The position numbers and the translations under genes were made by a program. Positions 14,070-51,166 of a DNA stretch of 64,000 bases are shown here, in pieces. Each line of letters starts with the position of its first letter. Position 1 is the stretch's first letter. The notes under the pieces were generated by a model. That model did not search any database. It saw only the letters and a list, made by a program, of their open reading frames with translations, and had not been told where the DNA came from. The DNA is from an uncultured Desulfovibrionaceae bacterium (GTDB taxonomy: Bacteria > Desulfobacterota > Desulfovibrionia > Desulfovibrionales > Desulfovibrionaceae): NCBI GenBank assembly GCA_964440345.1, contig CAYTSA010000008.1, positions 1,830-65,829 of the forward strand, in the 5' to 3' direction.

Positions 14070-14071
14070 GC

Positions 14072-16516: not shown

Positions 16517-16525
16517 GAAAACGCT

Positions 16526-17623: not shown

Positions 17624-17636
17624 GTCGCTCCTTAGG

Positions 17637-18188
17637 TTACGGCAGCAATACGGCCACCGCCAGGGTTGTTGTCCACATGCCCCCCTGTCCGTTGGTTACG
17701 CAGGTCTTGGACAAAGAGTCAATTATCTTCCCGGACATCATGTAGATATTGCGGCGCTCGTCATAATCGTGCTCGGGGTCGAAATCGATGCCCAGCGTGG
17801 TGGCCAGCATGGTGGAGGCCAGATCCTCGGCAAAGTCTCCCATTTCTTTCTCATCCTGGCCGAAACCGGTGTGCTCGGAAATGTAGCCGTACTGGTTCTT
17901 GTCCGCTGGAAAGGCCATGCCAACGGCGGAGCCCACCAGCCGGCCCTTCTCGTCGGTGGCGTTGCGGGCCATAACGCAAAAGGTGATCTGCCCGGGGCAC
18001 AGATGTTTCACGCCCTCGTCAACTTCCAGAATTTCAGCCTGAGGCGGCAAAATGGACGACACGTACACCAGATTCTGCTTCTCTATTTTTGCTTCGCGCA
18101 GAGCCAGCTCAAAAGACTGCAGCTTGTTCTTGTGCCGGCCAATGCCGCGTGTGAAAAACACTTTTTTGGGGACAAACGTGCATTGCAT
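17637..18188 (-). CDS. pdaD: Pyruvoyl-dependent arginine decarboxylase
   Basis: 183 aa from ATG 18188 ([17 protein letters not shown]). Ser-Ser self-cleavage site context VYVSSILPP. The ORF track extends to 18248. Confidence 0.8.
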
Positions 18189-18385
18189 GGTCAGGGTTAC
18201 CTCCTTGAGCGGCCTAAAGGGTATATAGTTCACGTCAACATGATCCAAATGCGACGCTTTGTAACATGCTGCGCGTCATGTCAAGCGTTCATGCTGGGGC
18301 CAGGTCTCTGGAAGGCGATTTCTTTTTTAAAAATCCGCTGCAGCCTCTTGCTTCCTTTGAAGAATAGCCGCGCCATTCAAATCTG

Positions 18386-31284: not shown

Positions 31285-32790
31285 ATGGTTCGCGCACAGC
31301 CGCACATACTACGATTTGCATCCTTGATACGATGCTGTGCGTGCGCCTTGTGCGTCGCGCTTGTGTGCGCAGACGCAGCGCACGCTGCAGAAGAAAACCT
31401 GTCCGTGCTGCTTCCGGTAAAGGGCGAGCGTGCTTACTACTCGCCGGCCGTGCCCCCGTTTCCCGCCGGGGCTCAGGTCCCTTCTTCGAACAAAGCGTTT
31501 CCGGAAACAGTGCTGCAGGCCAAACAGGGTCGCGTCGCCGTCTCTTTGGGCCGAGCCCCGGTCATTGTCGAAGACGTTGCGGCCAGGGCCTCCAGCGGAG
31601 AGGGACCGTCGCCCATGGGTTTGCACCCCCCGCACACCTACGCCAAACCTCCCAGCAGCCGCCGTCAGTTGCCGCCGCCCAGCCGCCTTGGCTACATGTA
31701 CGACGACGCCGTTGCGCTCAACGCAGGTTGGGGCCGTCCGGAATACTACGTCCGCTGGGGTCTGGTGCAACCCACAGACGAAGACGTAGCGCGCAACCGG
31801 TTTGACTGGTCCAGCACCGACTACGTAATACAGAGCGCTCCTGCAGACATGGAACTGCTGGTCAACGTTGGCGGCGTCATCTCCCGGCTGAAGGACGGCC
31901 GGCGGGCCGGCCCCACCGCCACGGGAAGCCCTGGCCAGCAGTTGGATTTCGAATTTGCCAAAGAGGAATACGAAGAACGGTTCGCCCAGTTCGTCCAGGC
32001 AACAGTGGAGCGCTATGACGGCGACGGCGTAGCGGACATGCCGGGCCTGCAAAACCCCGTCACCCATTGGCAGGTCCTGAACGAGCCTGATTTTTACGGC
32101 TCTGACGCAGAGGGCTATGGGCGCTTGCTGGCCCTGGCCTCCCTGGGAATACGCCGGGCCTGCCCGGAGTGCCGCATAGCCTGCGGCGGGGTCTCCCGGT
32201 TTCTGGAACAACGCGTTTTCGATGATTTTTACGTACCGGCCCTCAAGCAGTTGGAGCCAGGCGATATTGATATTTTCGACGCCCACCTGCTCACCCAGGC
32301 CGGGGTGTGGGAAAAGGATATTCTAAAACGCATGGAACACGCCCGCAATACTTTGGACTCGCTCGGATTTCGCAATGTGGAGCTCTGGTCTACAGAAGCT
32401 GGAACCTACAGCGGTTCGCCCTTGCATTTTTCCAAGACGCGAAACTTTCCTTACCAGAGCGAACAGGTTCAGGCCGCCGATCTGGTCAAACGCTTCGTCA
32501 GCCTGTTCGGCCTGGGCGCGCGAAAGGTGTTCTGGTCCTTTGGCATAGAGGAAGGATTCATTGGCGACGGCACATTTTTCGACAACTTTGGCCTGATCTA
32601 TGACGGCAAGGGGGATGAGGACCCGGGCCGCGGGGTCCGCAAGCTGGCTTACTATTCTTTTGCCAGGCTGGCGCAGATACTGAAGGGCGCGGACGTTGCC
32701 CGGGCCCGCACGCTGGACCTGGGACCAGGCGTCACGGCTGTGCAGTTTCTCAAAGGCGGCGGGTCTGTCGTTATACTCTGGGCGGACTGA
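31285..32790 (+). CDS. Secreted clan GH-A (GH5/GH39-like) glycoside hydrolase
   Basis: 501 aa. Signal peptide ending AHA-AE. Acid/base motif WQVLNEPDF and nucleophile motif ELWSTEAG, with the spacing expected for a (beta/alpha)8 retaining glycosidase. Confidence 0.65.
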   Translation: MVRAQPHILRFASLIRCCACALCVALVCADAAHAAEENLSVLLPVKGERAYYSPAVPPFPAGAQVPSSNKAFPETVLQAKQGRVAVSLGRAPVIVEDVAARASSGEGPSPMGLHPPHTYAKPPSSRRQLPPPSRLGYMYDDAVALNAGWGRPEYYVRWGLVQPTDEDVARNRFDWSSTDYVIQSAPADMELLVNVGGVISRLKDGRRAGPTATGSPGQQLDFEFAKEEYEERFAQFVQATVERYDGDGVADMPGLQNPVTHWQVLNEPDFYGSDAEGYGRLLALASLGIRRACPECRIACGGVSRFLEQRVFDDFYVPALKQLEPGDIDIFDAHLLTQAGVWEKDILKRMEHARNTLDSLGFRNVELWSTEAGTYSGSPLHFSKTRNFPYQSEQVQAADLVKRFVSLFGLGARKVFWSFGIEEGFIGDGTFFDNFGLIYDGKGDEDPGRGVRKLAYYSFARLAQILKGADVARARTLDLGPGVTAVQFLKGGGSVVILWAD

Positions 32791-35621: not shown

Positions 35622-36191
35622 TCAGGCTTTTTCCCGGTGCAGAGCCGGGTCTACAACAATGGACATGGCCTCAGTGTCCAACTTTTTAGACAAAAAACCC
35701 TGGACTTTTTGCGCCCATTCTGTGGGATTCGCCAGGCACTGGCGATAATCCACATACAGCACGTCCATGTTCCGCCTTTTTGTCAGCCACTCCTTCACCC
35801 TGGCCAGGTGGCTGGAAAAAAACACCTCCATGTCTGCGTCAGAAAGGTCGTCTCCCTTGCCCATGCGGCGCATCATGGCCTGCTGCGAGGCCAGCACTTC
35901 CGCGATGGGCCGCAGCATGAAGACCACCTTGCACGGCGTATTCTCCGGCATATGCTGCAGCATCGGAGAGACCACCTTGACCACACGGCCCTCGCACTCC
36001 GCCAGCCAGCTGTTGTCCTCGCGCAAAGATTTCACCTTATCCAACTCGTAGTACCCCTTGGGGTTGCTTGCGTCAGCGGCTCGCTTCCCGTCGGCCGCTA
36101 TATCCAGCCCGCCGGCGGCAAGCATCTGCATCATCATGGACGTGCCGGAACGCGGCAGGCCAGAAACAACAATTATAGGCTGTTGCGTCAT
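35622..36191 (-). CDS. PAPS-type sulfotransferase family protein
   Basis: 189 aa from ATG 36191. 5'-phosphosulfate-binding loop VVSGLPRSGTSMM. ATGA overlap with the upstream DUF362 gene. Confidence 0.7.
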   Translation of the reverse strand: MTQQPIIVVSGLPRSGTSMMMQMLAAGGLDIAADGKRAADASNPKGYYELDKVKSLREDNSWLAECEGRVVKVVSPMLQHMPENTPCKVVFMLRPIAEVLASQQAMMRRMGKGDDLSDADMEVFFSSHLARVKEWLTKRRNMDVLYVDYRQCLANPTEWAQKVQGFLSKKLDTEAMSIVVDPALHREKA

Positions 36192-37567
36192 GTTTGTGTC
36201 CTTTTGGATGAATGTGCCTGCGCGCATTCGCGTATGCAGTGAGCGTAGCGCCGCTGGTTCTCTTCCAAAAAACCCAGGTTGCCGTCATGCGCCACCGCTT
36301 GCTGCGGGCAAGCCAGAAAACAATAAAAACAGTCAATGCACTCGCTGCAGGCGGCCCCGCTTTCGCCCACAGGCGGCAGGTCTCGGGCTGGGTCCAGGCC
36401 CGCGGGGCAGTAGTCTTTGCACACGCCGCAGCCGTTGCACGCGTCCCTGTCCACCCGCAACCGGCCCAGGTCTGGCTCCTGTCCCAAAAAAACGTCCTGA
36501 CGCAACTGCAACAGACACAGCAACTTTCCGAACCACCCAGTGTCGCACAGATATTTGAACAACTGGGTGTTGCGTACGGCCAGAAACACTTTTTGCCGGC
36601 CCGGGCTGTGGATGAACGAGGCCAGCGCGTTGGCCCGGGGCGGTTCAAACTGTCTGGCCCAGGCGGCAAGGTCCAGACTGTCCACTTCGGCCATCATGTT
36701 TGAAGTCAGCATTCCCATGCGCGTGGCCAGGGCCAGTGGGCTCACCTGCTCCAGAGAAAAGCCGGCCAGCTTCAAACACAGGTAATCCAGCACAAATGGG
36801 TCCGTCCCGGCGGCGACCAGGTCGAGCGGCACGGGCCGGCCCCGGGTGGGGCCCAATCCCTCCATGGCCGCCAGCCCGTCCACTATGTGCAGATGCGGCT
36901 GCAGCTGCTGGTTCAGTTTCAGTATATTCAGGGCCAGGTTGTCGTGGACCTTTTTTTTGCTCTCCTGGCCGACCAGGCAACCGATGAGATTTTTCAAGCA
37001 CACGGACATGCCGGTTTCCATATGCGTCTTGATCACCGGCAGATTGATCAAACAAGCAGCCTCGGCGGCTTCCCTCGCCACGCTGGCCTGCAGCCCACGG
37101 TCAAACTCCACCAGACTCGTTTCGGAATAGTTCAGATCAATAACCGGAACTCCATAGCGTTGAGCCAGACGCCGAACGCCCAGCAGCGAGATGACGTCTA
37201 TCTTGTGCCGGTAAAAACCGCTGTTGGTTCCTTCGCCAATGGTCACGTTGGCGTAGCCGGCGTCCTTGAGGACGGCTAGCACAGCAGCCAGCAGCCGCAA
37301 ATCTGTGGTGTTGCCGGTCAGAGCCGTCATGTTTGCGTTCAGGTTCGGCTTCAGCAGCACAGGGGCCTGCTTGTCCTGCGGCAATGCACCGGCAAACCGG
37401 GAGCATATTGCTTCCACAGCCTGACAGGCGGAATCCAGAGAGCGGACCTTGCGCAGCAAAAAGCCCGCGCTATCCGGGAAGGGGGGGGCGGCGCCAGAGC
37501 CCCTGGAGCCGGTATTCTGTATGGGCATGATGACGGTAAAGTGACCATGAAGCCGGGAAAAAAGCAA
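36188..37567 (-). CDS. DUF362 domain protein fused to a 2x[4Fe-4S] ferredoxin domain
   Basis: 459 aa. DUF362 blocks LLKPNLN, INLPVIKTHM, VDGLAAMEGLGPTRG. Two cluster motifs near the C-terminus: CNGCGVCKDYCP and CIDCFYCFLACP. Confidence 0.8.
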   Translation of the reverse strand: MLFSRLHGHFTVIMPIQNTGSRGSGAAPPFPDSAGFLLRKVRSLDSACQAVEAICSRFAGALPQDKQAPVLLKPNLNANMTALTGNTTDLRLLAAVLAVLKDAGYANVTIGEGTNSGFYRHKIDVISLLGVRRLAQRYGVPVIDLNYSETSLVEFDRGLQASVAREAAEAACLINLPVIKTHMETGMSVCLKNLIGCLVGQESKKKVHDNLALNILKLNQQLQPHLHIVDGLAAMEGLGPTRGRPVPLDLVAAGTDPFVLDYLCLKLAGFSLEQVSPLALATRMGMLTSNMMAEVDSLDLAAWARQFEPPRANALASFIHSPGRQKVFLAVRNTQLFKYLCDTGWFGKLLCLLQLRQDVFLGQEPDLGRLRVDRDACNGCGVCKDYCPAGLDPARDLPPVGESGAACSECIDCFYCFLACPQQAVAHDGNLGFLEENQRRYAHCIRECAQAHSSKRTQT

Positions 37568-37587: not shown

Positions 37588-37661
37588 GCCCGCGCCAGTG
37601 ACAAGCACGCAGAGCCGTGGTATATACGCTGCTACACGCGCTGCATATTCAGGTACGCTCC

Positions 37662-38453
37662 ATGTTCAGGACACATACTTTATTGACGACAATCCTCCGG
37701 CTTATGACGGCGTTATTTCTGGCCGTTGCATTGCTCGCTTGTGCTGTGTCGTGCTCCCGCACTCAATACCCGGCTGTTGACTACGCCGACGCGCCAGCTC
37801 CAGACCAGGGACCACTGGTGCTTGGTCCGGGCGACGAGGTGCGCATCAGCGTATGGCGCCACGACGACATGAGCCACAGCCCTACTCTGGACATGACCGG
37901 CCGTATCTATCTGCCGCTGGTTGGCGAGATCAAAGCCGGCGGCATGACCCCGGACGACCTGCGGGAGCATGTCGCCACGAAACTCTCCGCCTATGTGAAA
38001 AACCCCCATGTCACGGTCAGCGTGTCCAGCGTGAGCAGCATGCGGGTGCACGTGCTGGGGGAAGTGGAAAACCCCGGGACAATAGCCATGAAACGCCGGC
38101 TGACACTGTGGGACGCTTTGGCCAGCGTCGGCGGGTTGAACACTTACGCAAACGAAGAGCGCGTGCTGCTCATCCGCCATGATGCTGAAAAAGCCCAGGT
38201 TATGGCCCTGAGCGCCAGCCTGCCGGATGCACCGGACGGCGACATGCCGTCCACCCGCTTCTGGCTGCAAAACAACGACATCATCTACGTAACCCCAACC
38301 AGATTGGGAGAGGTAGAGCGGTTTATGACTAAGCTCAACGCTTCCATGGCGCCCTTTCTCACCGTCGGTCGCGCCACGCTGCTGTATCCGGACATAAAAT
38401 CCATCATCGAAACTGGTGAGAGGTCTACTGAAGCCAGCATCATTGTTGACTGA
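37662..38453 (+). CDS. Wza-type outer-membrane polysaccharide export lipoprotein (Poly_export + SLBB)
   Basis: 263 aa from ATG 37662. Lipobox LLAC. LGPGDEVRISVW...IYLPLVGEIKAGGMTPDDL matches the polysaccharide-export signature. Confidence 0.85.
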   Translation: MFRTHTLLTTILRLMTALFLAVALLACAVSCSRTQYPAVDYADAPAPDQGPLVLGPGDEVRISVWRHDDMSHSPTLDMTGRIYLPLVGEIKAGGMTPDDLREHVATKLSAYVKNPHVTVSVSSVSSMRVHVLGEVENPGTIAMKRRLTLWDALASVGGLNTYANEERVLLIRHDAEKAQVMALSASLPDAPDGDMPSTRFWLQNNDIIYVTPTRLGEVERFMTKLNASMAPFLTVGRATLLYPDIKSIIETGERSTEASIIVD

Positions 38454-38491: not shown

Positions 38492-39961
38492 ATGCACGTG
38501 GTGGCGCTGAACGCGCCGTATTTTGACAAATTTTCCCGGCCCCAGCGCAGCCCGGCCGTTACCAAAAGCGGGACCATCTATTTCCCCATCTGGCTGGCCT
38601 TTGCCGTGGCCGTGCTGGAACAAGCCGGCTACGACGTGTCCTTCATCGACGCGCCAGCCAGAGGATATGACCTGGAGGAGACCTTGCGCCAAGTCACAGC
38701 GGTCAAGCCTGGCCTGGTTGTCATGGACACCACCACGCCCAGCGTGGACAACGACGGCGCTGTGGCCCAAGCCATAAAAGAAGCGCTGCCTGACACTGTC
38801 ATCATCTTTGTGGGCGTTCACAGCTCAGCCCTGCCGGAAGACACCTTGCGCCGATGTCCGGCGGTGGACGCAGCAGCCGTGCGCGAATACGAACACACTG
38901 TGCGGGACCTGGCCGCGGCGATTGAAGCCGCGGGGGGACTGCCCGAAACTGGCGTCCTGCGCACGGTCGAGGGGATAGCGTTTCGCCACGCCGACAACAT
39001 CGAACGAACGCCGGACCGGGAATTCATCGAGAACCTGGACGAGCTGCCCTGGGTAAGCCCGGTGTACAAAAAACACTTAGACATCCGCGACTATTTCAAC
39101 CCCAACGCCCGCTACCCCATGGTCACGCTCATCACCAGCCGGGGCTGCCCTTTTCGCTGCAGCTTCTGCGTCTACCCCCAGACCATGAGCGGCCGGCGCT
39201 ACCGGTTCCGATCCATCGCCGACGTTGTGGACGAAATGGCCTGGGTCAAAGAGCAGTTCCCGGAGGCCAAATCCATTTTCTTTGAAGACGACACCCTGAC
39301 CGCGGACAAGAAGCGCTGCCAGGAGTTCAGCCGGGCCGTCATAGACCTCAACCTGGGTCTGAGCTGGACTGCCAATTCGCGCATAGACCTGGACTACGAA
39401 ACCATGGCCCTGATGCGCAAGGCCGGCTGCCGCATGCTCTGCGTGGGCTTTGAAAGCGGCGACCCGGAAGCGCTGAAGGCCATGCGCAAGGGCGTCAAGC
39501 GCGAGCGCATGCTGGAGTTCATGCGCGACGCCCGCAAAGCCGGCGTCCTCATCCACGGCTGTTTCATTTTCGGCTTTCCCGGCGAGACTGCAGAATCCAT
39601 CCGCCGGACCATAGACTTCGCCATGGAGCTGGGTCCAGACACCGTGCAGTTCTATCCCATCATGGTCTACCCCGGCACAGAAGCCTACGACGACTACCTC
39701 CAGCGCGGCTGGGTGACCGTGAACGATTTCAGCCGCTGGCTGACTCCGGACGGGCTGCACAACTGCGTAGTGCGCAACGAGAACCTGACCGGCGAGGAGC
39801 TGGTCCGGCTGTGCGACGAGGCCCGGCGGAAATTCTACCTGCGGCCAGGGTACATGGCTTACAAGCTGCGGCAAGTAATCACCCAGCCCCAAGAATGGAG
39901 CCGCACGGCCAAGGCGGCGCGAACTTTTTTCAAACACCTGATTCTCGGATCCCGGGTATGA
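38492..39961 (+). CDS. Cobalamin-binding-domain radical SAM enzyme (class B-like), second copy
   Basis: 489 aa. B12-type N-domain. Radical SAM motif TSRGCPFRCSFCVYP. C-terminal region typical of this family (FYPIMVYPGTEAY). Confidence 0.8.
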   Translation: MHVVALNAPYFDKFSRPQRSPAVTKSGTIYFPIWLAFAVAVLEQAGYDVSFIDAPARGYDLEETLRQVTAVKPGLVVMDTTTPSVDNDGAVAQAIKEALPDTVIIFVGVHSSALPEDTLRRCPAVDAAAVREYEHTVRDLAAAIEAAGGLPETGVLRTVEGIAFRHADNIERTPDREFIENLDELPWVSPVYKKHLDIRDYFNPNARYPMVTLITSRGCPFRCSFCVYPQTMSGRRYRFRSIADVVDEMAWVKEQFPEAKSIFFEDDTLTADKKRCQEFSRAVIDLNLGLSWTANSRIDLDYETMALMRKAGCRMLCVGFESGDPEALKAMRKGVKRERMLEFMRDARKAGVLIHGCFIFGFPGETAESIRRTIDFAMELGPDTVQFYPIMVYPGTEAYDDYLQRGWVTVNDFSRWLTPDGLHNCVVRNENLTGEELVRLCDEARRKFYLRPGYMAYKLRQVITQPQEWSRTAKAARTFFKHLILGSRV

Positions 39962-41061: not shown

Positions 41062-42300
41062 TCAATCCACGCAGGAATCCTGCTCTCTGGCTTTTTTGTA
41101 TTCCAGATAGAAATCAAGAATGTGCGGCGGGCAACCCGGTATGAACTTGCCCACACGGCCGTACTGCCGGTAGTCGTGCACCAACTCCGCGGCGCAGTTG
41201 CCAAAGCACCACAGCTGGCCCTCTTTCTGGCGCAGGTTTTGCCGGTCTGGCATGGGCTTGCCCACGTATACGTTTTCCACAGCGCGGTCAGCAAAAAGCC
41301 CTTCAATGTGCAGTTTGTCCAGAGCGTGGCGCAGGGCGGAAAGGCAGCCAAAACAAGCGCCCCCCTCGACAACACGCACCTGGGGATACGCAGCGATGGA
41401 ACTGATGACCGGCCGGCGAAACGGCCGGCGAACCTCTTCTATGCCTGCCCCGCTCACCTGAATCTCACCCTCCGCCATGGCCCCCAGTCCTTCAGCGTGA
41501 GCCATGCGCAGCATGGTCACCTCAAACGGGTCCACAGACATAACCCGGGCCGCTGTCCCGTCCACCGCCAGCACGTCCCTGCCGGCAATGATGGTGTTCA
41601 TATCGTCCACCACCGCCCCGGAAAGCGGCGCCTGCCCCTGCACGGCCATTATACCGTCCAGTATAGTCAGGTCCGGCTTGACCACCCGCAGTATGTCCAC
41701 CAGCTTGATGTTAATGTCATTTCGATGGAAGGACATCCGGTCCTCGTCCAGAATGAGCCCATACTGGTTCTTCACGCCCAGGGTCAGCAGGGTGTGCATG
41801 TGCGTCTTCATCTTGGGCAGGTTGATGTACACGTCTGCGTCTACCAGGCACTTGGGCACGGTGACCGGGTCGTAGAGCACGGCATTGGGATTCTTCAGGG
41901 CAACCCGAGGCTCGCCGTCAAAAAAGCGTATGGTCGCGCCGGCGGCCTCAAGCCGCTCCCGAACCTGTTCGGTCTGGGCCAAAGCCTTTTTCAGGGGCAG
42001 GCCCCAGCCCGGGTTGTCGCCTATCCAGACCTTTTGGGCGCCAGCGTCGCGCAGCAGCTGCACCAGGGCGATAATCACCCGCTCGTCGGTAACGATGGCG
42101 TAAGGGTTGTGCGCGCTGGGCCGTACGTAGTTGGGCTTAATAAGCACGGTCATGCCGCTCACCAGCCGTTGCAGGTCCACAGCCAACGCCACAGCGTCCG
42201 CCATCAGGTTGCGGATGACAGAAAGTGACTTTTCCGAGTATTCGCCGGGTTTTTCCGGCACGCGCCCGGCCTTTAACAGGCCGACGACAGCTTTTTCCAC
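41062..42300 (-). CDS. DUF362 domain protein (no ferredoxin domain; Cys-rich C-terminus)
   Basis: 412 aa. Shares LIKPNYV, INLPKMKTHM and LDGIMAVQGQAPLSG blocks with the protein at 36188-37567. C-terminal cysteines GGACFGC...CFGNC...GCPPH. Confidence 0.8.
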   Translation of the reverse strand: MEKAVVGLLKAGRVPEKPGEYSEKSLSVIRNLMADAVALAVDLQRLVSGMTVLIKPNYVRPSAHNPYAIVTDERVIIALVQLLRDAGAQKVWIGDNPGWGLPLKKALAQTEQVRERLEAAGATIRFFDGEPRVALKNPNAVLYDPVTVPKCLVDADVYINLPKMKTHMHTLLTLGVKNQYGLILDEDRMSFHRNDINIKLVDILRVVKPDLTILDGIMAVQGQAPLSGAVVDDMNTIIAGRDVLAVDGTAARVMSVDPFEVTMLRMAHAEGLGAMAEGEIQVSGAGIEEVRRPFRRPVISSIAAYPQVRVVEGGACFGCLSALRHALDKLHIEGLFADRAVENVYVGKPMPDRQNLRQKEGQLWCFGNCAAELVHDYRQYGRVGKFIPGCPPHILDFYLEYKKAREQDSCVD

Positions 42301-43862
42301 GCTACTTTACCTCCAGGCGTTCTTGGCAACTCGTCAATAATTTCCACAAGACGCGGAGTCCTGTAGCGGTGCAGCCGGCGGCTGCACCATTTGCGGATAT
42401 CCGCCGCCGTCAATTGGCGTCCCTCTTTTGCCACCACAAAGGCTTTGGGAATCTCACCATGCAAGGCGTCGTCGTTTTTTACCACCGCCGCCTCGGCCAC
42501 GTCTGGATGGGCGCGGATCACATTTTCGATTTCTATGGGATAGACCTTTATGCCGCCCACCTTCATCATGCCGGAAATGCGGCACTTAAAGTAAAAAAAT
42601 CCGTCCTCGCCCTGACACATCACATCGCCGGTGTGGAACCAGCCTTGCGCGTCCGTAACCGGAACCAGTTCTCCGTGGCCTGTCAGATAGTTATGGCACA
42701 CGGCCGGTCCGCGGATGAGCAGCTCGCCCACCTGGCCGGGGTCGGCCTCCTGGCCGCTTTCGTTTGTGATAATGGCTTGATAACCCGGGCAGGGCCGGCC
42801 CACCGAGCCCGGCGGCGCCTCCAGATCGCGGGGGTTGTTGTCCTTCATGCGGTTGGTCAAGGCAACGCCGGCTGTTTCTGTGGAGCCCCAGACGGCTTGG
42901 ATGGGCAAGCCGAACCGTTCGGCAAAGGCCTGGCGCAAGGCGGGTGTTACATGCATGCCGCCGCTCTCCGGCGCCCGCAAGCTGGAGAAGTCCCAGCCTG
43001 TTAAGGAAGGCAAACGAACGAGCGTTTCGTATATGGACGCCACCGCCATCAGCGTGGTCACCTTGTGTTCATGCAGAGCCTTGGCGATGGTCTTTGGCCG
43101 CACGCCATCCAGCAACACAGCCGTTCCGCCCAGAAAGATTGGCCGGGCGTAGATTTCATGCGGGTGCACAAAGGCTGGAAACATACACAGGTGAACGTCT
43201 TCTTCCGTGAACCCAAAGGCGCGGACTGCAGCGATGGTGTTGGCGTCCATGTTGGCGTGAGTGGTCACCGCCGCCTTGGGCCTACCAGTGGTGCCGGATG
43301 TGTAGTTCAGGTACGCTGGATCGTCCGGAATGATGGCCGGCATGGCGGCTGGCCGGCTCATATAGGTTTCATGCTCGGCGTAACTGCGGCGGCCTGCGCC
43401 CCCCATTGCCGCGCCCAGGAAAAAGGTGGCGGCCGGTTCCGGCGCGTCCTGGGCGTTTTGCAGCATGCCGGCCAGTTCGGCGGCGACAAACAAGGCCCGT
43501 GGCTGTGCCTGTTCCAGCACACTGTGCAGCGTTTCCCGCGGCATGTTGCAATCCAGGGGAAAAAACACTCCGCCGCACTCCATTATGGCCAGGTGGCAGA
43601 GCATGGCTTCAGGCGTTTTGGGCCCCAGGCAGCCCACCTTATCGCCCTTGCGCACCCCGGCGTCAGCCAGCATGGCGGCCAGGGCGGACGTACGCTCCTG
43701 CACCTCCTGGTACGATATGCGCACATCGTCATAGATAAAGGCTGCTTTGCCGGGAAAAACGTCCGCGCTGCGCCGCAGCCGTTCGCGAAACGTGCGAAAG
43801 TCTCCTGGAGCGGCATGCGCTGGCTCCGCCGCTATGTTGGTCTTGCCGGTAAAAGCGTACAT
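42273..43862 (-). CDS. AMP-dependent synthetase/ligase (acyl/aryl-CoA ligase superfamily)
   Basis: 529 aa. Core motifs YTSGTTGRPKA, GWFHTGD and PRTPGGKV. 28-nt overlap with the downstream DUF362 gene. Confidence 0.85.
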   Translation of the reverse strand: MYAFTGKTNIAAEPAHAAPGDFRTFRERLRRSADVFPGKAAFIYDDVRISYQEVQERTSALAAMLADAGVRKGDKVGCLGPKTPEAMLCHLAIMECGGVFFPLDCNMPRETLHSVLEQAQPRALFVAAELAGMLQNAQDAPEPAATFFLGAAMGGAGRRSYAEHETYMSRPAAMPAIIPDDPAYLNYTSGTTGRPKAAVTTHANMDANTIAAVRAFGFTEEDVHLCMFPAFVHPHEIYARPIFLGGTAVLLDGVRPKTIAKALHEHKVTTLMAVASIYETLVRLPSLTGWDFSSLRAPESGGMHVTPALRQAFAERFGLPIQAVWGSTETAGVALTNRMKDNNPRDLEAPPGSVGRPCPGYQAIITNESGQEADPGQVGELLIRGPAVCHNYLTGHGELVPVTDAQGWFHTGDVMCQGEDGFFYFKCRISGMMKVGGIKVYPIEIENVIRAHPDVAEAAVVKNDDALHGEIPKAFVVAKEGRQLTAADIRKWCSRRLHRYRTPRLVEIIDELPRTPGGKVAWKKLSSAC

Positions 43863-43867
43863 GGGAT

Positions 43868-44632
43868 CTATTGTTTTTTACTGCTCTTTACAACGCGGTT
43901 CTGACAACCTGTAAAGTGCAGCAGCAGCCTGGCCACAGTCCACATGGTGAGAGCCGCTGTCTTGGCCACAAGCTTGCCGTCATACCAAAAAGACTGATGT
44001 TCCAGATAGTGTTCATCATGTTCTATGTGGTCGCCAATGGGCAGCGTTCGGTGGGGGCTGAGCTGCCAGGGCCCGGTCACCCCCGGCGTCACGTTCAGCC
44101 GGCGGCGCTGGCGGGGAGAATACTGATCCACCAGAAACTGCATCTCCGGCCGCGGCCCGACCACGCTCATGTGGCCGCGCAGCACATTGTAAAACTGCGG
44201 CAACTCGTCCAAGCCTGTCCTTCGCAGCAGACGGCCCACCCGGGTAACCCTGGGGTCGCAGCTGTCATCTTTGGGCGTTGTCGCATATTTAGGGGCAGTG
44301 ATGAACATGGTTCTGAATTTGTACAGAGTGAAGAGCTTGCCGTTTTTTCCAACGCGTTTCTGAGAAAAAAATACCGGGCCCGGGCTTTCCAGCTTCACCG
44401 CCAGGGCAATAATTAGGCTCACAGGCGCAGAAAACACGATGATTGCGCTGGCAAAGCATAGGTCAAACAGCCTCTTTGCCCGCAGATAGCCCCTGGATTG
44501 ATTCGGAACGCCGCTTGTATTCCCCGCGTTGCAATTCTGGCCGCTGGTCCCGGCTTCGAGTGGCGCGGCCTCCTCGCAAGCCATTGCAGCCTGACGCGAC
44601 GAGGCATTATTCCTGTTTGTCATCTCCCCCAC
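43868..44632 (-). CDS. Polyprenyl-phosphate sugar-phosphate transferase (bacterial sugar transferase, small WbaP/EpsL type)
   Basis: 254 aa with one TM helix. Conserved SQKRVGKNGKLFTLYKFRTM and LRRTGLDELPQFYNVLRGHMSVVGPRP. Confidence 0.85.
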   Translation of the reverse strand: MGEMTNRNNASSRQAAMACEEAAPLEAGTSGQNCNAGNTSGVPNQSRGYLRAKRLFDLCFASAIIVFSAPVSLIIALAVKLESPGPVFFSQKRVGKNGKLFTLYKFRTMFITAPKYATTPKDDSCDPRVTRVGRLLRRTGLDELPQFYNVLRGHMSVVGPRPEMQFLVDQYSPRQRRRLNVTPGVTGPWQLSPHRTLPIGDHIEHDEHYLEHQSFWYDGKLVAKTAALTMWTVARLLLHFTGCQNRVVKSSKKQ

Positions 44633-44815: not shown

Positions 44816-45226
44816 CTAAGCACATACATGCAACACAACTGTATTAGCGTCGCCCTCCCGGATGTATTCCATGCGCTCTGTCATTCTGCGGACAAAGAAA
44901 ACCCCCAGCCCGCCAATGCCGCGTTCCTCTACGCCCAGCGACGTGTCCGGCGCAGGGGCTGAGGCAACAGGATCAAAGGATCCGCCCCAGTCTGTAATCC
45001 GCAACACAAAGCACCCCCGGTCGTCCAGACTGCAGGCAACCTCCACCTCCCCTTCAGAATCCGGGTAAGCGTAGCGCATCACATTGACCAGCAGCTCTTC
45101 GAGCACCAGATCAAGCTTGGGTTCCAGGCCCTCGGCTTCTGGAGTCAGCAAAGCAGCCTGCTCCAAGACAAAAGACCGGAATCGCTCTAAATTGTCCAGC
45201 CTGGCCGGCAGGCGCAAGGCAACCAT
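44816..45226 (-). CDS. Anti-sigma-factor-type serine kinase (RsbW/SpoIIAB-like HATPase)
   Basis: 136 aa. N-box EELLVNVMRYA and G-box GIGGLGVFFV. Confidence 0.8.
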   Translation of the reverse strand: MVALRLPARLDNLERFRSFVLEQAALLTPEAEGLEPKLDLVLEELLVNVMRYAYPDSEGEVEVACSLDDRGCFVLRITDWGGSFDPVASAPAPDTSLGVEERGIGGLGVFFVRRMTERMEYIREGDANTVVLHVCA

Positions 45227-45235
45227 AGCCAGGGC

Positions 45236-45568
45236 CTATAGTTTCTGCAGGGCTTCATCCAGACTGTCCGCCATGGGAAACATGGATGCAAAGCCGGAAA
45301 CCTGAAATACTTCTTTGACCATGCCCGAAAGGTTGCAGAAAACCATCTTCCCGCCGGCAGACTTGAGCTTTTTGGCTGTGGCCAGAATGGACCGCAACCC
45401 TGCGCTGGAGATGAACTCCAGCCCAGCCAGGTCCACAACCATGACAGTTTCGCCAGCGTCAATGTGCTTTTGGCACTCATTTTCAAATTCCGGCGCTGTG
45501 ACCGCGTCCATACGGCCAAACACTTGCAACGCCATCGCGGCGTCCCTTTTTTCTGCTTTGAATTCCAT
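45236..45568 (-). CDS. STAS-domain anti-sigma-factor antagonist (SpoIIAA/RsbV-like)
   Basis: 110 aa. Phosphorylatable-serine motif DLAGLEFISSAGLRS. GAGGA 9 nt upstream of the ATG. Confidence 0.85.
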   Translation of the reverse strand: MEFKAEKRDAAMALQVFGRMDAVTAPEFENECQKHIDAGETVMVVDLAGLEFISSAGLRSILATAKKLKSAGGKMVFCNLSGMVKEVFQVSGFASMFPMADSLDEALQKL

Positions 45569-45701: not shown

Positions 45702-46883
45702 TCAAGACCGCAAGGCGTCAATAGGGTTCAGCCGGGCTGCAGACCTGGCCGGATAGAACCCAAAAAACACCCCGACCGCTGCAGACACGCCCACTCCCAA
45801 GCCGATGGCCCAGTACACGACAAAAAAATGCCAGTTAGAGTAGTGAGCTATGACCCAGGAAGCGCCAACCCCCAATGCTATGCCCAGCGCGCCTCCAACC
45901 AGAGAAAGGAGGACGGACTCGATGAGAAACTGTCCTTGTATATCGCTACGCTGAGCGCCCAGCGCCCGGCGGACGCCGATTTCCTTTTTGCGTTCAGTGA
46001 CTGAAACAAGCATGACGTTCATGACTCCCACGCCGCCCACAATGAGCGAGATGGACCCCACCGCGCCCAGCAGCAGGGTGAACATGCGCTGCTGGCTCTC
46101 CATGCGCTGGATCAACTCTTCTGCAGTGCGGACGCTCACCTTCAGATTCTTTTGCCGCGCAGCAAAGAAATCGTGCACTTCCGCCGTGGCCTGAGCTGTT
46201 GCGTAGCCTTTGGCCATGCGGCCCATGACGGCGCCTATGGAGGCGTCGGGGCTCATCCGCAACGCTGTGGCGATATGGGTCATCAGGCCCTCGTTTATCT
46301 CATAGGGGCGCATGCCCCCAGCCGGGGCGTTCTCCAAAACGCCGGCCACAGTAAACAGACGGCCGCTGAACTTCACTTGCGCTCCCACGGGGTTCAAAAG
46401 CCCTTTACCCCGCAGCTTTTCTGCCGCGTTGGCCCCCAGCACGCAATAATACATGCGTTCATCCATGTCGGAAATGATCCGGCCACTGACAACAGCAAGC
46501 TTGTTGATGCTGAAGAACGTTTCAGTCACCCCCAAACCGGGAATGGAGAAACGTTCTCCTTCATACCCCATGTCGCCGTAGATCGTAGTATAGGGCGCCG
46601 TAAGCGCCACAGACGGACATGCGGCCGGAATATCCAACGCGTTGTCCAGGCTGATAGAGGTTTTACCAGCCCCGTCTCCGCCGTAGTCTTTGCGGATGAG
46701 CATAATGTCCGTGCCCATTTCCACAAACTGCCGCAACACCTCTGCCTGGACGATGGAGCCTACAGACACCATGGCAATGACAGAGCCAATGCCGATGATG
46801 ATGCCGATGAGCGCCAGTATGGTCCGCTGTTTGGCGGACAAAAGCGATTGCGCCGCCTCGCGCAGATTTTCCCGCAATTGCAT
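45702..46883 (-). CDS. ABC transporter permease, MacB/FtsX type (stand-alone)
   Basis: 393 aa. One N-terminal TM helix, a large periplasmic domain, then three C-terminal TM helices (FtsX fold). N-terminus REAAQSLLSAKQRTILALIGIIIGIGSV. Confidence 0.85.
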   Translation of the reverse strand: MQLRENLREAAQSLLSAKQRTILALIGIIIGIGSVIAMVSVGSIVQAEVLRQFVEMGTDIMLIRKDYGGDGAGKTSISLDNALDIPAACPSVALTAPYTTIYGDMGYEGERFSIPGLGVTETFFSINKLAVVSGRIISDMDERMYYCVLGANAAEKLRGKGLLNPVGAQVKFSGRLFTVAGVLENAPAGGMRPYEINEGLMTHIATALRMSPDASIGAVMGRMAKGYATAQATAEVHDFFAARQKNLKVSVRTAEELIQRMESQQRMFTLLLGAVGSISLIVGGVGVMNVMLVSVTERKKEIGVRRALGAQRSDIQGQFLIESVLLSLVGGALGIALGVGASWVIAHYSNWHFFVVYWAIGLGVGVSAAVGVFFGFYPARSAARLNPIDALRS

Positions 46884-46910
46884 AGTTCTTCAGATTCCCT
46901 TGGCGACCCT

Positions 46911-47627
46911 TTACGCCGCAAAAATCACGCCGTCCTTCATGCGCACAGAGCGCGTGCACTGCCCGGCTATGCTTGGGTCGTGCGTTATGATGAGTATGGC
47001 GACGCCTTCGGCGTTCAGCTCCAGAAACAAATCCATGACGCCCTGCCCAACCACCGTATCCAGGGCGCCCGTAGGCTCGTCAGCCAATATCAGCGAAGGG
47101 TCGCCGCACAGAGCCCGGGCAATGGCCACCCGCTGCTGCTGCCCGCCGGAAAGCTCTGCAGGCTTGTGCTCCATTCTCTCAGCCATGCCCACGCGCTCCA
47201 GCCTGGCCACTGCCCTCTCTTTGCGCTCCTTTTCCGACGCGCCGCGATAAACCAGAGGCAAACAGACATTCTGCAGAGCTGTGAGTTTGGGCAACAGATG
47301 GAACTGTTGGAAGACGAAGCCAATTTTGCGGTTGCGTATGGAGGAAAGCTGCTTGTCGGTCAGGGACGAGGCGTCCTGGCCTTCAAAGCGGTACTCGCCG
47401 GCCGACGGAGTGTCCAGAAAACCGATGATGTTCATGAGCGTGGACTTGCCGCAGCCGGAAGACCCCACTATGGAGGTCAACTCCCGCGGCTGCATGGCAA
47501 AATCGACGCCCTTCAGAACTTCCAGGGGCACTGGCCCCAGCTGAAATGACTTGCGAATGGCGCGCAGCTCTAGAAGCGGGACGGCCGCAGCACTACTCGC
47601 CGCCACATCCAACACCGGCTGCATCAC
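46911..47627 (-). CDS. ABC transporter ATP-binding protein (MacB/LolD type)
   Basis: 238 aa. Walker A GSSGCGKST, signature LSGGQQQRVAIARAL, Walker B ILADEPTGALD. ATGA overlap with the adaptor gene. Confidence 0.9.
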   Translation of the reverse strand: MMQPVLDVAASSAAAVPLLELRAIRKSFQLGPVPLEVLKGVDFAMQPRELTSIVGSSGCGKSTLMNIIGFLDTPSAGEYRFEGQDASSLTDKQLSSIRNRKIGFVFQQFHLLPKLTALQNVCLPLVYRGASEKERKERAVARLERVGMAERMEHKPAELSGGQQQRVAIARALCGDPSLILADEPTGALDTVVGQGVMDLFLELNAEGVAILIITHDPSIAGQCTRSVRMKDGVIFAA

Positions 47628-49384
47628 GGCAGCACCACCGTATCCCCCGGCTGCAGGCCCTGCGTGATTTCTACGGAGTTCAAGGTGGTCAGGCCGGTCT
47701 GCACCGGCACAAGCACAGGCTCTCCGTCCTTGAGCACTGTGACCGTCCGGCTGTCAGAACCGCGCCCCACTGCAAAGATGGGCACAAGCAGAGCTTGGGG
47801 ATTCTCATAGACTTTCACCTCCAGGTTGGCGGACATGCCAATGCGTACTATGGCCCGTTCTTTCTCCGTGAGGGAGGACACCTGCACCACTACTTCAAAG
47901 GTGGCTACCCCGCCGGAGCCTTTATCAGCCTGGGAGGATATGTGGGCAATTTCCCCGTTCAGCTCCACATCCGGAAATGCGTCGCCAAACACTCGAACCT
48001 CTTGCCCAATGCTAAGATTGCCGATGTCCACCTCATCCACCTGGGCCTTCACCACCAGTCCGGACAAGTCGCCTATGCCCAGGAGAATCTGCCCTTCCGA
48101 GACTTTTACGCCCTGCTCTATCTGCTGCTGCTTGTTGTCCTTGCCGGTTTCCGCCGGCTTGACCACAATGCCGGCCAATGGCGCCGCAATAACGCTGGCA
48201 TTACGCTTCTGCTCCAGCTCCTGCAGCTCGAACTGGGAGTTCTCCAGCTCCAAGTGTGCTATGCGGACATTTTCTGCGCTGCCTTGTTGGAGTGTAGAGT
48301 CCAGCTCCTCCTTGGCGGCTTTGAAGTCCAGCTCGGCGTTATCCAGGCTTTGCTGTGCAGAGTCCAGATCATTTTTGGGAACTATGCCTTTGCCGTATAG
48401 CAACTTGTTTTCTTCGAGCTTGCGGCGGGCGGCGTCCAAGGTGCTCTGAGCCTTGGTGTAAGACCGCCGGGCCCGAGAAACTTCGTTGCTTTGAGTCCAG
48501 TTGACTATCTGCTGATACTTTTGCTTGGCCTGGATGAATGTTGTCCGGGCCTTGCGCAGCTTGACCTCCAGCTTTGCGGGGTCCAGCTCCAGCAACACAT
48601 CTCCCTTATTAACGATTTGCCCGTAGTAAAAGTTCGTTTCCTTAACCCGGCCTTCATACGGAGCCGCCAGATGCACCTGCCGCAAAGGCTCAAGTTCGCC
48701 GGTCAGTGAAATGGAATTGGAGACTGGCCGGGGTTCAATGCGCAGAGTATTAAGGTGCTGCGCATGTTGGCCAGAGCGTTTACCCTCTGCATCCTTCACC
48801 AGGCTGGCCAGGGCGCCTGTGGCTGGGGACCATTGCCAGTAGCCCAAGCCTCCCACCAGGCCGATGATAAACAACGTAGCCAGAACACGCACCACCTGGA
48901 CTTTTTTCAGGGCAGAGCGCAAACTTTGGTTGGTCTCCTCCAGCTTGCGGTAACTTTCCGCCAGCTGGCGGTTCAGCTCTTGCTGGGCTTCCTGCAGCTG
49001 CTGCAGTTGGGTAACGTCGCTGAACACAACGATAACGCCGCTGTTGGCTTCTTCACTGTCCTCAGATGCGTCTTTAAGAAAGGAGGACGTCACAGACAAG
49101 TTTAGTTTTGTCCCGTCCTGGCGGGTATACTCCACCACGCTTTGGCTTCCCACGCCAGTCTGATACACCGCGTCAAGGACTGCCTGATTGAAGCCGTCGT
49201 TGCCCTCCATTTCCATCATGAACACTTCGGCAAACCGCCGGCCCAGCACCCGCTCCGGCGCCAAGCCCAAGATGCGGGCTGCGGCATGGTTGAACATGAT
49301 GACTGCGCCGGAAAAATCCAGAGTCATGACGCCTTCATTCATGTTCTGCAATATATTGGTATGGAAGGAGGACTCGTCCTGCAT
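47624..49384 (-). CDS. HlyD-family periplasmic adaptor (membrane fusion protein) with N-terminal cytoplasmic PAS domain
   Basis: 586 aa. Residues ~8-120 are PAS-like (ILQNMNEGVMTLDFSGAVIMFNHAAARILG...VVFSDVTQLQ). TM helix VLATLFIIGLVGGLGYWQW. The rest has lipoyl/coiled-coil/beta-barrel MFP architecture (VNKGDVLLELD, IAAPLAGIV). Confidence 0.8.
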   Translation of the reverse strand: MQDESSFHTNILQNMNEGVMTLDFSGAVIMFNHAAARILGLAPERVLGRRFAEVFMMEMEGNDGFNQAVLDAVYQTGVGSQSVVEYTRQDGTKLNLSVTSSFLKDASEDSEEANSGVIVVFSDVTQLQQLQEAQQELNRQLAESYRKLEETNQSLRSALKKVQVVRVLATLFIIGLVGGLGYWQWSPATGALASLVKDAEGKRSGQHAQHLNTLRIEPRPVSNSISLTGELEPLRQVHLAAPYEGRVKETNFYYGQIVNKGDVLLELDPAKLEVKLRKARTTFIQAKQKYQQIVNWTQSNEVSRARRSYTKAQSTLDAARRKLEENKLLYGKGIVPKNDLDSAQQSLDNAELDFKAAKEELDSTLQQGSAENVRIAHLELENSQFELQELEQKRNASVIAAPLAGIVVKPAETGKDNKQQQIEQGVKVSEGQILLGIGDLSGLVVKAQVDEVDIGNLSIGQEVRVFGDAFPDVELNGEIAHISSQADKGSGGVATFEVVVQVSSLTEKERAIVRIGMSANLEVKVYENPQALLVPIFAVGRGSDSRTVTVLKDGEPVLVPVQTGLTTLNSVEITQGLQPGDTVVLP

Positions 49385-49387
49385 GCG

Positions 49388-51058
49388 CTACTCGTTTTGC
49401 TCGCCTGTTCCGCCAGCGCTGGTTTGTGGTTGCGTAAACGTCTGCAGTTGTCTGTTCACGTCATCCATGGTTTCCCGGGTTTCGCGAAATTCTATGGACC
49501 ATGTTTCCAGGGTCACGCCCATGGTTTGGTTCAAGTTGGTCACGGCGTTGCGGTAGTTGATCATAGACTGCAAAGCCGTGGTCTGGGAAGAGACCAGGTC
49601 GTTCTCAAAGCTGACCACCTGAAAGTTCGTGGACCGTCCCAGCCGCAGTTTTTCCTTTTCTATTTCCAGCTTGCGTTTGGCAAGCTCCAAAGCCTGCTTG
49701 GAAAACTGCAACTGCCGCGACTGGGCGTGAACCTCCCGCACGGCGTCGCGCACCTCCACCCGAAGGTTGGCCTCCAGCTCTTTCAAGTTCACCTGGGCGT
49801 TGCGCAGGGCCACCTTGGCGGAGACAAGCTGCTGGCGCCGGCTAAGGTCGCCGTATAAAGGCGCCGCAAGACGCAACCCCAGCCCCCAAGTAGACGCGTC
49901 CGAATCCGAGCCCGGGTCTACGTCGGAGAAATTGCGGGCGTAGGTGGACTCAAGGTCCAGCGTTATAAGCATATTGTTCTCAGCCAGCACGAGGTTTATC
50001 TGCGCCTGAGTGAGCCCAATCAGAGCCTGCAAGTAGTCAGTCCGGTTGGCCAGAGCCACGGCCAGGACCTCGTCAAACGCAGGGTCCACAGTCTCCAGGG
50101 GGTCCTCTTCCACAGTGGCGAGGGGCGTATCTTCGTCTATGTCCAGCACCTGGATAAGCCGCAGCCGGGCGCTGACCACAGAATTTAAAGACTCTTCATA
50201 GGAGAATTCTCTGTTGGCGATGTCCGCTTGGGTCTGGACAATTTCCATGGGCGCCATGCGGCCGGCCTGGATAAGCAGCTTGTTGACTTCCAACTGCTTT
50301 TTAGAACGCTCAAGCGAGGTCTTGCTGATGTCCACCTGCCAGCGGGCCTGCTGGTAGCTGCGGTAGGCGCTGATTATGGAGTTGACGGTGGAGACAAGCG
50401 TGGCTTTCAGGCCAAGGACGTTGGATTCTTCTGAGAGCCGCGCCTTACGCAAACTGGCGGTGGCGACGCCGTACCCTGCGTTTTTCAGCAGCGGCTGGGT
50501 GAAACTGAAGTTCCATCCCCATTTTTCCGTATCAGTGCGGTCGCTCCCTTTGGTCTTGCGGCTGGAGTAGCCAGAATTTAGCGACAGGCTCAAGGAGCCG
50601 CCAATGGCGGTCTTTTCCGAAAGCACAAACGACCAGTCCATGGCGTTTGTTTCGCTCCAGCTCTTGGAAGAAGGTGAAGTGTACGAAGATTCCGAGCCGC
50701 TGGTATTGAGATTGCCCTTCACGTCCAGATTGGGGACAAATTCATCTTCCGCCACTTTCAAACTGAATTTCTGGACGATGCGGCTCAGATAGGCGCCGGT
50801 GACGGAACGGTTGTGGCGCAGGCCAACAGCAATGGCCTCCTGCAGCGTCATGGGCACGGTGTTGAGGGTGTGCTCGTCGCTTTGCACCGCAGCTACTGCA
50901 GCAGACTCCACCGGATATCCGGACGCCTGGTCTGCGTTGGCCGGGGCGGCCGCATTTGCGCTGGCGGCCTCAGCTGTACACATGCTCCCCGGGGAGCAGA
51001 TTACCGCCAAAAAAAAATAACAGGCGCAGCAGAAGAGTATGCGTTGCAAACGAACCAT
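49388..51058 (-). CDS. TolC-family outer membrane efflux protein
   Basis: Two OEP repeats with coiled-coil segments. Signal peptide from ATG 51058 (MVRLQRILFCCACYFFLAVICSPG). The ORF track extends to 51109. Confidence 0.85.
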   Translation of the reverse strand: MVRLQRILFCCACYFFLAVICSPGSMCTAEAASANAAAPANADQASGYPVESAAVAAVQSDEHTLNTVPMTLQEAIAVGLRHNRSVTGAYLSRIVQKFSLKVAEDEFVPNLDVKGNLNTSGSESSYTSPSSKSWSETNAMDWSFVLSEKTAIGGSLSLSLNSGYSSRKTKGSDRTDTEKWGWNFSFTQPLLKNAGYGVATASLRKARLSEESNVLGLKATLVSTVNSIISAYRSYQQARWQVDISKTSLERSKKQLEVNKLLIQAGRMAPMEIVQTQADIANREFSYEESLNSVVSARLRLIQVLDIDEDTPLATVEEDPLETVDPAFDEVLAVALANRTDYLQALIGLTQAQINLVLAENNMLITLDLESTYARNFSDVDPGSDSDASTWGLGLRLAAPLYGDLSRRQQLVSAKVALRNAQVNLKELEANLRVEVRDAVREVHAQSRQLQFSKQALELAKRKLEIEKEKLRLGRSTNFQVVSFENDLVSSQTTALQSMINYRNAVTNLNQTMGVTLETWSIEFRETRETMDDVNRQLQTFTQPQTSAGGTGEQNE

Positions 51059-51166
51059 GACGCCGCCTTGGACTGATAGTGTAAAGGTCCAAAACGCAAA
51101 ATACCTCATTGCCTCAATGTTTGCAACATGTTGCTAAACTTACTGCGCGTACCGGACAACGAGGCG

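Follow-up and report, generated by a model that had tools for sequence, protein, structure and literature searches.

A probable ligase–DUF362 module and a predicted LarA-like pocket in DUF362 proteins from a polysaccharide locus of an uncultured Desulfovibrionaceae bacterium

The stretch of DNA studied here, hereafter the window, spans 64,000 nucleotides (nt) of an uncultured Desulfovibrionaceae bacterium (assembly GCA_964440345.1, contig CAYTSA010000008.1, positions 1,830 to 65,829 of the forward strand), and coordinates in it are counted from its first letter. It contains a tight operon of three minus-strand genes, which encode, in order of transcription, a small PglC-type polyprenyl-phosphate phosphoglycosyl (priming) transferase of 254 amino acids (aa) (43868–44632; PF02397), a 529-aa adenylate-forming ligase of the ANL superfamily that resembles acyl-CoA synthetases (42273–43862; PF00501 and PF13193), and a 412-aa DUF362 protein with a Cys-rich C-terminal domain (41062–42300; PF04015, residues 52–251), here termed DUF362cys. 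An initial annotation made from the DNA letters had described a 5-nt gap followed by a 28-nt overlap, and the open reading frames (ORFs) and junctions agree: the transferase stop codon (TAG, 43870–43868) lies 5 nt ahead of the ligase ATG at 43862, and the GTG start of DUF362cys at 42300 precedes the ligase stop at 42273 to give the 28-nt overlap. A GGAGG motif stands 9 nt upstream of this GTG. N-terminal conservation among 46 orthologues supports its use as the start, as do overlaps at the same junction in three related loci (25 nt in L001, 8 nt in L019 and 28 nt in L022). The ligase–DUF362cys pair is conserved and probably translationally coupled.

A second DUF362 gene lies 3.5 kb away on the same strand (36188–37567), and encodes a 459-aa paralogue (PF04015, 149 bits) that ends in a ferredoxin domain for two [4Fe-4S] clusters (Fer4 families), here termed DUF362fer4. 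The two proteins share 24% identity over 266 residues (E 4e-16) and have the KPN, INLPxxKTHM and DGxxAxxGxxP blocks in common, as had been noticed in the initial annotation. Equally accurate was its remark that DUF362cys replaces the ferredoxin domain with a Cys-rich tail, in which the motifs GGACFGC, CFGNC and GCPPH are present and which, too, probably binds a metal or an Fe-S cluster.

The ligase matches its two Pfam families clearly (PF00501, 261 bits, E 2e-77; PF13193, 74 bits, E 1.5e-20), and the motifs YTSGTTGRPK, GWFHTGD and PRTPGGK can be read in the sequence together with the C-terminal catalytic Lys. In the PDB it is closest to FadD5 and to the synthetases of feruloyl-, oxalyl- and malonyl-CoA, with matches that span the whole protein (E 1e-54 to 1e-49), and benzoyl-CoA ligase is also among the near relatives. 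The best NCBIfam match is PRK06187, a long-chain-fatty-acid–CoA ligase model (366.5 bits vs a cutoff of 476). No ORF resembling an acyl or peptidyl carrier protein (ACP or PCP) was found in six frames of the window with a small ACP/DltC hidden Markov model (HMM) of limited sensitivity and phmmer (best E 0.66), and inspection of the small intergenic ORFs of the window yielded a STAS protein and junk. The reported lack of a carrier protein therefore stands, and it is expected and unremarkable, because the best relatives of the ligase are free-standing acyl-CoA synthetases that use CoA. Another adenylate-forming enzyme, in this case PaaK-like (AMP-binding_C_2), is encoded 37 kb away (3458–4774, minus strand); this subfamily also adjoins DUF362cys in archaea.

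The pairing of the ligase with DUF362cys recurs far beyond the window. Orthologues of DUF362cys, taken at 38–80% identity and all of ~400–420 aa, occur in Desulfovibrionaceae (those of 72–75% identity), Solidesulfovibrio, Acidobacteriota, Sumerlaeota, several uncultured bacteria and Bathyarchaeia. Locus counts rest on tblastn and the collection's own gene calls, and a clade of 33–36% identity (L031–L037, with a sigma-54 activator, LplA/B and SDR as neighbours) was left out of the orthologue tally. An ANL ligase lies next to DUF362cys, or one gene off, at 15 of the 21 informative loci, in at least six lineages (with Desulfovibrionaceae, uncultured phyla, Sumerlaeota and Bathyarchaeia represented) and in both gene orders; the positive loci are the window, L001, L003, L004, L005, L006, L007, L011, L012, L013, L016, L017, L018, L024 and L025. 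The ligases are not all of one kind. Orthologues of the window ligase are found at L001, L003/L022, L004, L005, L006, L007, L012/L019, L016 and L025, a different subfamily (22% identical) occupies the position at L017 and L018, and in the archaeal loci L011 (10001–14308), L013 and L024 (10001–14337), from Bathyarchaeia and relatives, the gene after DUF362cys encodes a PaaK-like ligase (AMP-binding_C_2), with an aldehyde:ferredoxin oxidoreductase (AOR) next in line. In all, three ANL subfamilies pair with DUF362cys. The control set comprised 144 ORFs that neighbour distant DUF362 genes, most of them of the ferredoxin type, at 27 loci, and AMP-binding was not among the families that recurred there (at least two ORFs). 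The 15/21 adjacency and the control together indicate that DUF362 neighbours are non-random (random neighbours would have spoken against the initial annotation) and that the link to a ligase is specific to the DUF362cys clade and far beyond chance.

These distributions also bear on the simplest alternative, which is that unrelated genes have been juxtaposed by chance in a mosaic polysaccharide locus. Such loci are indeed mosaic, and scans for promoters and terminators returned nothing over background. However, chance would have to account for an adjacency that spans bacteria and archaea, with AMP-binding no recurring neighbour at the 27 control loci, and for L022, where the transferase, ligase and DUF362cys genes form an isolated operon with no polysaccharide locus around them. 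The synteny data largely refute chance juxtaposition, which we consider extremely improbable.

The priming transferase takes a lesser part in this conservation. Its gene also precedes the ligase in L003/L022 and L004, and it is part of the unit only in these closest relatives and the window; the three-gene operon that was proposed as a unit is real, but the conserved unit is the ligase–DUF362cys pair, not the trio. The PF02397 domain covers residues 53–228 of the transferase (E 1.9e-59, 200.6 bits vs a cutoff of 27). TIGR03025 scores 253.9 bits, under its cutoff of 295.55, and matches with the C-terminal part of the model alone (positions 251–437 of 445); compared with WbaP/WcaJ-type models, the window protein is the catalytic domain alone, which explains its sub-cutoff scores.

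The relatives also clarify the position of DUF362fer4. Orthologues of 50–55% identity stand directly upstream of the ligase in three Desulfovibrionaceae loci (L001, L005 and L006), in the order DUF362fer4–ligase–DUF362cys, and a DUF362-Fer4 gene comes immediately after a distant DUF362 gene of the tail type in L095 and L097. Since DUF362fer4 lies upstream of the same ligase in those three loci, both paralogues look like partners in one pathway, and DUF362fer4, 3.5 kb off in the window and contiguous in relatives, is probably a partner of the ligase/DUF362cys pair. We consider it very probable that the ligase and DUF362cys, together with DUF362fer4 where it is present, constitute a conserved functional module. 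The initial annotation had instead cast DUF362 as a generic accessory, with each paralogue serving its own adjacent group-transfer enzyme, the ligase in one case and a sulfotransferase in the other. The sulfotransferase (PF00685, E 2e-13; minus strand, 35622–36227 as an ORF) does lie tightly against DUF362fer4: an ATGA at 36188–36191 overlaps the DUF362fer4 stop with an internal ATG (Met13) of the sulfotransferase ORF, and an AAGGA motif lies upstream, from which we place the probable start at 36191, not 36227. Both junctions in the window, the ATGA and the 28-nt overlap, are tight, which favours a one-to-one arrangement. However, the sulfotransferase had no tblastn match at ~100 related loci, its adjacency to DUF362fer4, with which it would be co-transcribed, was seen in the window only, and DUF362fer4 orthologues adjoin the ligase instead. 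A conserved sulfotransferase–DUF362 pairing was accordingly rejected, and a generic accessory role with one DUF362 for each transferase is very unlikely. The part of the earlier proposal in which the ligase and DUF362 act together fared better, given that adjacency at 15 of 21 loci, in at least six lineages and with three ANL subfamilies, supports a functional coupling.

The fold of DUF362 provides an opportunity to consider what such a partner might do. PF04015 matches DUF362cys at 148.9 bits (cutoff 24; E 2.5e-43), and an AlphaFold2 model of the protein has a predicted local distance difference test score (pLDDT) of 91.8. When this model was compared with the PDB using Foldseek, the top 18 matches all belonged to the LarA family, which comprises the nickel-dependent lactate racemase and its homologues and has a two-domain alpha/beta fold (E 2e-6 to 2e-4, probability 0.99–1.00), and LarA-family structures were the only significant fold matches; the template modelling (TM) score of ~0.4 means that essentially one domain superposes on LarA. 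This relationship was not among the observations of the initial annotation. It agrees with the placement of DUF362 and DUF2088/Lar_N (PF09861) in one Pfam clan, CL0471 (PMC11770544), and the searchable literature otherwise holds DUF362 solely as an outgroup for LarA trees (PMC11770544). In the reverse direction, true LarA proteins match PF04015 (E 1e-5, residues 82–245).

Residue conservation follows the same line. Eleven positions are 100% conserved among 57 diverse DUF362 proteins of both tail types: K55, N57, K165, H167, K177, N178, G181, H192, D215, P225 and D247, the first nine of which mark the LarA_N-like domain of DUF362cys (41548–42147, minus strand). Profile–profile alignments from three builds gave one register (hhalign E 0.08–0.2), which equates H167 with LarA His174, K177 with Lys184, H192 with His200, N57 with Asp72 and R60 with Arg75; the corresponding codons of the first three lie at 41800–41802, 41770–41772 and 41725–41727. 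Both ends of the alignment fall within a few residues of those in the independent Pfam mapping (82–245), and the spacing is alike in both families (His-10-Lys, then Lys-15/16-His). LarA uses His174 as an acid/base, Lys184 as the covalent tether of the nickel-pincer nucleotide and His200 as a nickel ligand, with Asp72 binding the cofactor ribose and Arg75 the cofactor phosphate and the substrate carboxylate (PMC12393405). From these sequence comparisons and the model, DUF362 has a LarA-like fold and appears to keep the His/Lys/His set of LarA. Other routes to the same comparison were unproductive: the DUF362cys sequence, alone and as a 47-sequence profile, found nothing significant in the PDB, thin profiles compared by hhalign gave no match between DUF362 and LarA, and matches of a DUF362 HMM to single LarA sequences were not significant.

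The C-terminal tail of DUF362cys (residues 296–412; 41065–41415, minus strand) adds a second putative cofactor site. C316, C319, C369 and C390 are invariant in 47 aligned orthologues, and C365 is not. A model of the tail alone (pLDDT 82) is a small beta-alpha-beta alpha/beta domain in which each Cys comes right after a strand, where flavodoxin-like folds usually bind their cofactors. The domain is rare: a phmmer search of 1.84 billion sequences recovered 37 cluster representatives, of which almost all share the architecture of DUF362cys or are fragments. Sequence conservation and model together suggest that the four Cys probably form a single Fe-S or metal site, with [4Fe-4S] the likely occupant. 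The Cys-motif order and local sequence resemble the proximal [4Fe-4S] site of the [NiFe]-hydrogenase small subunit and NuoB (CxxC...GxC...GCPP), which likewise sits on a flavodoxin-like alpha/beta domain. The profile match to the hydrogenase small subunit is non-significant (E 1.4) and at the level of motifs, so that a hydrogenase-type tail is a lead, not a membership. Identity with the hydrogenase/NuoB family (PF01058-type) was unconfirmed: there was no Pfam match, and neither family was recovered by Foldseek or by phmmer over the 1.84 billion sequences. The best Foldseek match of the tail-only model (E 0.045) was to a flavodoxin-like wing domain. One representative of 640 aa (P0246) carries, C-terminal to DUF362cys, a fused class I SAM-dependent methyltransferase, and two methyltransferase genes lie 2–5 kb downstream of the trio in L022.

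The surroundings of the operon (22–45 kb) form a polysaccharide or glycolipid locus. Its assembly and export genes encode family 2 glycosyltransferases (GT2), a GT9 enzyme, Wzz, a Wzx-type flippase, a Wzy/O-antigen-ligase-like protein and Wza, and its modification genes encode a type I phosphodiesterase, an LpxL-family acyltransferase, two B12-binding radical SAM enzymes and the sulfotransferase. The Wza-type export protein (37617–38453, plus strand; PF02563 and SLBB) is divergent from DUF362fer4. The LpxL/HtrB-family acyltransferase (28961–29914, plus strand; PF03279, E 1.5e-25) is encoded ahead of one radical SAM enzyme (29776–31272, plus strand; PF02310 and PF04055), nearest to BzaD and rSAM_ladder_B12 but below both cutoffs; the other (38492–39961, plus strand; PF02310 and PF04055) is HpnJ-like, with TIGR03471 at 414.8 bits against a cutoff of 577.6. 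Several of these neighbours recur. In L008, L009 and L014 the gene immediately before DUF362cys encodes Wza, and in L008 and L009 the one immediately after it is Wzc-like. LpxL-family genes occur in the L008 polysaccharide locus, which holds DUF362cys, and beside distant DUF362 genes in L101 and L102. DAHP-synthase-family and/or dehydroquinate (DHQ)-synthase genes stand beside the pair in different lineages (L001, 11309–13626; L005; L016, 9187–10008; L025, ~13400–15400), which hints at a shikimate-type or 3-deoxy-ulosonic acid substrate; together with AOR, these are enzymes of 2-oxo/hydroxy-acid and carboxylate chemistry. Taken as a whole, the gene contexts (priming transferase, Wza/Wzc, GT2, flippase, LpxL-like, DAHP/DHQ synthase and AOR) appear to point to glycans or carboxylic acids.

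These same neighbours allow a rival explanation in which the two halves of the module have separate functions, the ligase being an ordinary fatty-acyl-CoA (or acyl-ACP) synthetase that feeds the LpxL-family acyltransferase, and the DUF362 proteins being dedicated electron donors or accessory redox partners of the B12-binding radical SAM enzymes that would leave the ligase product untouched. The best NCBIfam match of the ligase, the presence of LpxL-family genes in the window, L008 and L101/L102, and the Cys-rich or ferredoxin domains on both DUF362 paralogues would all fit. So would the radical SAM genes: Radical_SAM was the commonest neighbour family in the control set (10/144 ORFs), and B12-binding radical SAM genes lie within 10 kb at no fewer than seven DUF362cys loci, counting L012/L019, L013, L017, L018, L024, L025 and L097. 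Yet the ligase/DUF362cys stop/start overlaps are kept across phyla, non-orthologous ligases have been recruited to the same neighbour, and the ligase–DUF362 pairs of L001 and L022 have no radical SAM gene within 10 kb. Furthermore, some nine invariant polar residues in a LarA-like pocket would be superfluous if DUF362 did no more than ferry electrons. Separate functions are, on balance, unlikely.

The joint reading that we prefer proposes the following sequence of events. The ligase would convert a carboxylic acid to an acyl-AMP and most likely then to a CoA thioester, for which a carrier protein would be unneeded. The DUF362 proteins, with a predicted LarA-like His/Lys/His pocket and one acid/base His, could then act beside the carboxyl group by hydride or redox chemistry of the 2-hydroxy/2-oxo-acid type, with electrons passing via the Fe-S clusters of the DUF362 proteins. 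The polysaccharide or glycolipid that the priming transferase initiates would finally carry the tailored acyl or acid group, and the LpxL-family acyltransferase may attach it. LarA enzymes act on 2-hydroxy acids and pass through a 2-oxo intermediate; for DUF362, a single acid/base His and attached Fe-S clusters would make one-way oxidoreduction more plausible than racemisation. Within this scheme, we infer the identity of the acid, the use of CoA, the Fe-S content, the cofactor and the final acceptor. The full mechanism, from ligase activation through DUF362 redox chemistry to glycan decoration, is tentative, and we hold it to be somewhat less than an even prospect.

Several observations weigh against this scheme. 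The ligase reaches no equivalog cutoff, the models other than PRK06187 lying further below theirs among the best 25 of 106 families, and no substrate is readable from its sequence. The gene contexts are heterogeneous (glycan, shikimate-type and AOR), so that the substrate may differ between lineages. Five or six loci have no ligase (L008, L009, L014, L020 and L023), which implies that DUF362cys can work without one nearby. On the side of DUF362, the residue alignment to LarA is statistically weak by itself and draws its strength from agreement with the Pfam and fold evidence. The catalytic His108 of LarA is not conserved, its position being W99 in DUF362cys and variable (T/L/Y/W) across the family. 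The LarA_C substrate domain (PF21113) is absent from DUF362cys: neither Lar_N (PF09861) nor LarA_C matched its N-terminal part or tail at E ≤ 5, compared with E 1e-75 and 1e-70 for true LarA. A larB, larC or larE gene was seen neither in the window nor in the annotated related loci, nor among the recurring neighbour families of the 27 distant loci. Finally, the tail has no significant match to known Fe-S domains in Pfam or in the PDB by Foldseek.

A bolder extension concerns the cofactor itself. The enzymes that use a nickel-pincer nucleotide (or a related pyridinium cofactor) might include DUF362 (PF04015) as a branch so far overlooked, in which a Lys-tethered, His-ligated cofactor is wired to Fe-S clusters and the LarA hydride shuttle becomes a net ferredoxin-linked oxidoreduction of ligase-activated 2-hydroxy/2-oxo acids. 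We regard this as improbable, and the lack of larBCE genes near the DUF362 genes in the loci covered speaks against the nickel reading. About 15% of genomes carry larBCE without larA, and the missing cofactor users are posed as an open question (PMC11796402). Non-LarA nickel-pincer users have been found by larBCE anchoring, among them the AKR-type NphT, which answers that question in part (PMC13524815), and DUF362 is mentioned neither there nor in PMC11796402. Both window DUF362 proteins weakly match NCBIfam NF052623, the cyanobacterial 'Npun_F2552 family', and cyanobacteria make the nickel-pincer cofactor without LarA (PMC11796402).

Further features of the window and related loci were recorded alongside. 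Directly upstream of the operon (44816–45568, minus strand), a 110-aa ORF that looks in sequence like a STAS-type anti-anti-sigma factor accompanies an RsbW-like HATPase_c_2 protein, and the two might regulate the locus together by partner switching. Beyond them, ABC-transporter/efflux-type genes adjoin the locus (45702–51109, minus strand; ABC permease, ATPase and outer-membrane-factor calls from translations alone), including a 586-aa membrane-fusion-like protein with an apparent PAS-like sensory region at its start. Two large proteins encoded inside the polysaccharide locus or at its margin match no Pfam family (501 aa, 31285–32790, plus strand; 556 aa, 20967–22637, minus strand). On its other side lie a polyamine-type cluster (15473–18248, minus strand) encoding a PAD_porph-family protein of the peptidyl-arginine/agmatine deiminase type, a deoxyhypusine-synthase-like protein and a pyruvoyl-dependent arginine decarboxylase, then an HD-domain protein (14072–15376), and a 1322-aa protein that has both pentapeptide repeats and class I adenylate cyclase domains (10101–14069, minus strand). 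Elsewhere, L019 contains a sulfatase-family gene followed by a radical SAM/SPASM gene of the anaerobic sulfatase-maturase-like type (3669–6582), beside two B12-binding radical SAM genes and GT2 genes, a set resembling the window, and polysaccharide deacetylases and a B12-binding radical SAM gene lie further downstream in L024.

The three protein families and the link of DUF362 to the LarA clan were known already. The ligase–DUF362cys(–DUF362fer4) module, the apparent family-wide retention of LarA cofactor residues and the four-Cys domain are undescribed in the literature searched. DUF362 is a large uncharacterised family, for which the ligase-paired clade, the co-occurrence of Cys tail and ferredoxin, and the apparently retained LarA His/Lys/His set offer handles for experiment. 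Should the cofactor idea be true, it would widen the very short list of nickel-pincer scaffolds and link them to Fe-S electron transfer, and would add both 'missing' cofactor users for genomes with larBCE and no larA and a new glycan tailoring in the window locus. If it is false, the module would still indicate that envelope glycans bear an acid-derived modification, both in sulfate reducers and in several uncultured lineages. Overall, the module is real, conserved and uncharacterised, and the cofactor hypothesis is testable and potentially important.

Each component can be set beside a known system. The transferase agrees with PglC-type monotopic phosphoglycosyl transferases (PF02397) in domain, size and DE/PRP motifs. 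The ligase shares its Pfam domains, core motifs and catalytic Lys with free-standing ANL acyl-CoA synthetases (PRK06187/FadD-like), which likewise need no carrier protein; it differs in falling below all curated family cutoffs and in its translational coupling to DUF362, which is undescribed for known ANL CoA synthetases. DUF362 has the clan and the fold in common with the LarA superfamily, and its His/Lys/His and Asn/Arg positions may correspond to the cofactor-site residues aligned with them, whereas LarA is without Fe-S-type domains and DUF362 without LarA_C and His108. For the module as a whole, an analogy may be drawn to the pathways that combine a CoA ligase with Fe-S enzymes, namely the 2-hydroxyacyl-CoA dehydratases and benzoyl-CoA reductases. 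Their folds are unrelated to DUF362, and the ATP-dependent activator is absent here, so that the likeness is one of logic alone: by analogy, an acid would be activated as a thioester and then undergo Fe-S-dependent redox chemistry at its carboxyl carbon or at the adjacent position.

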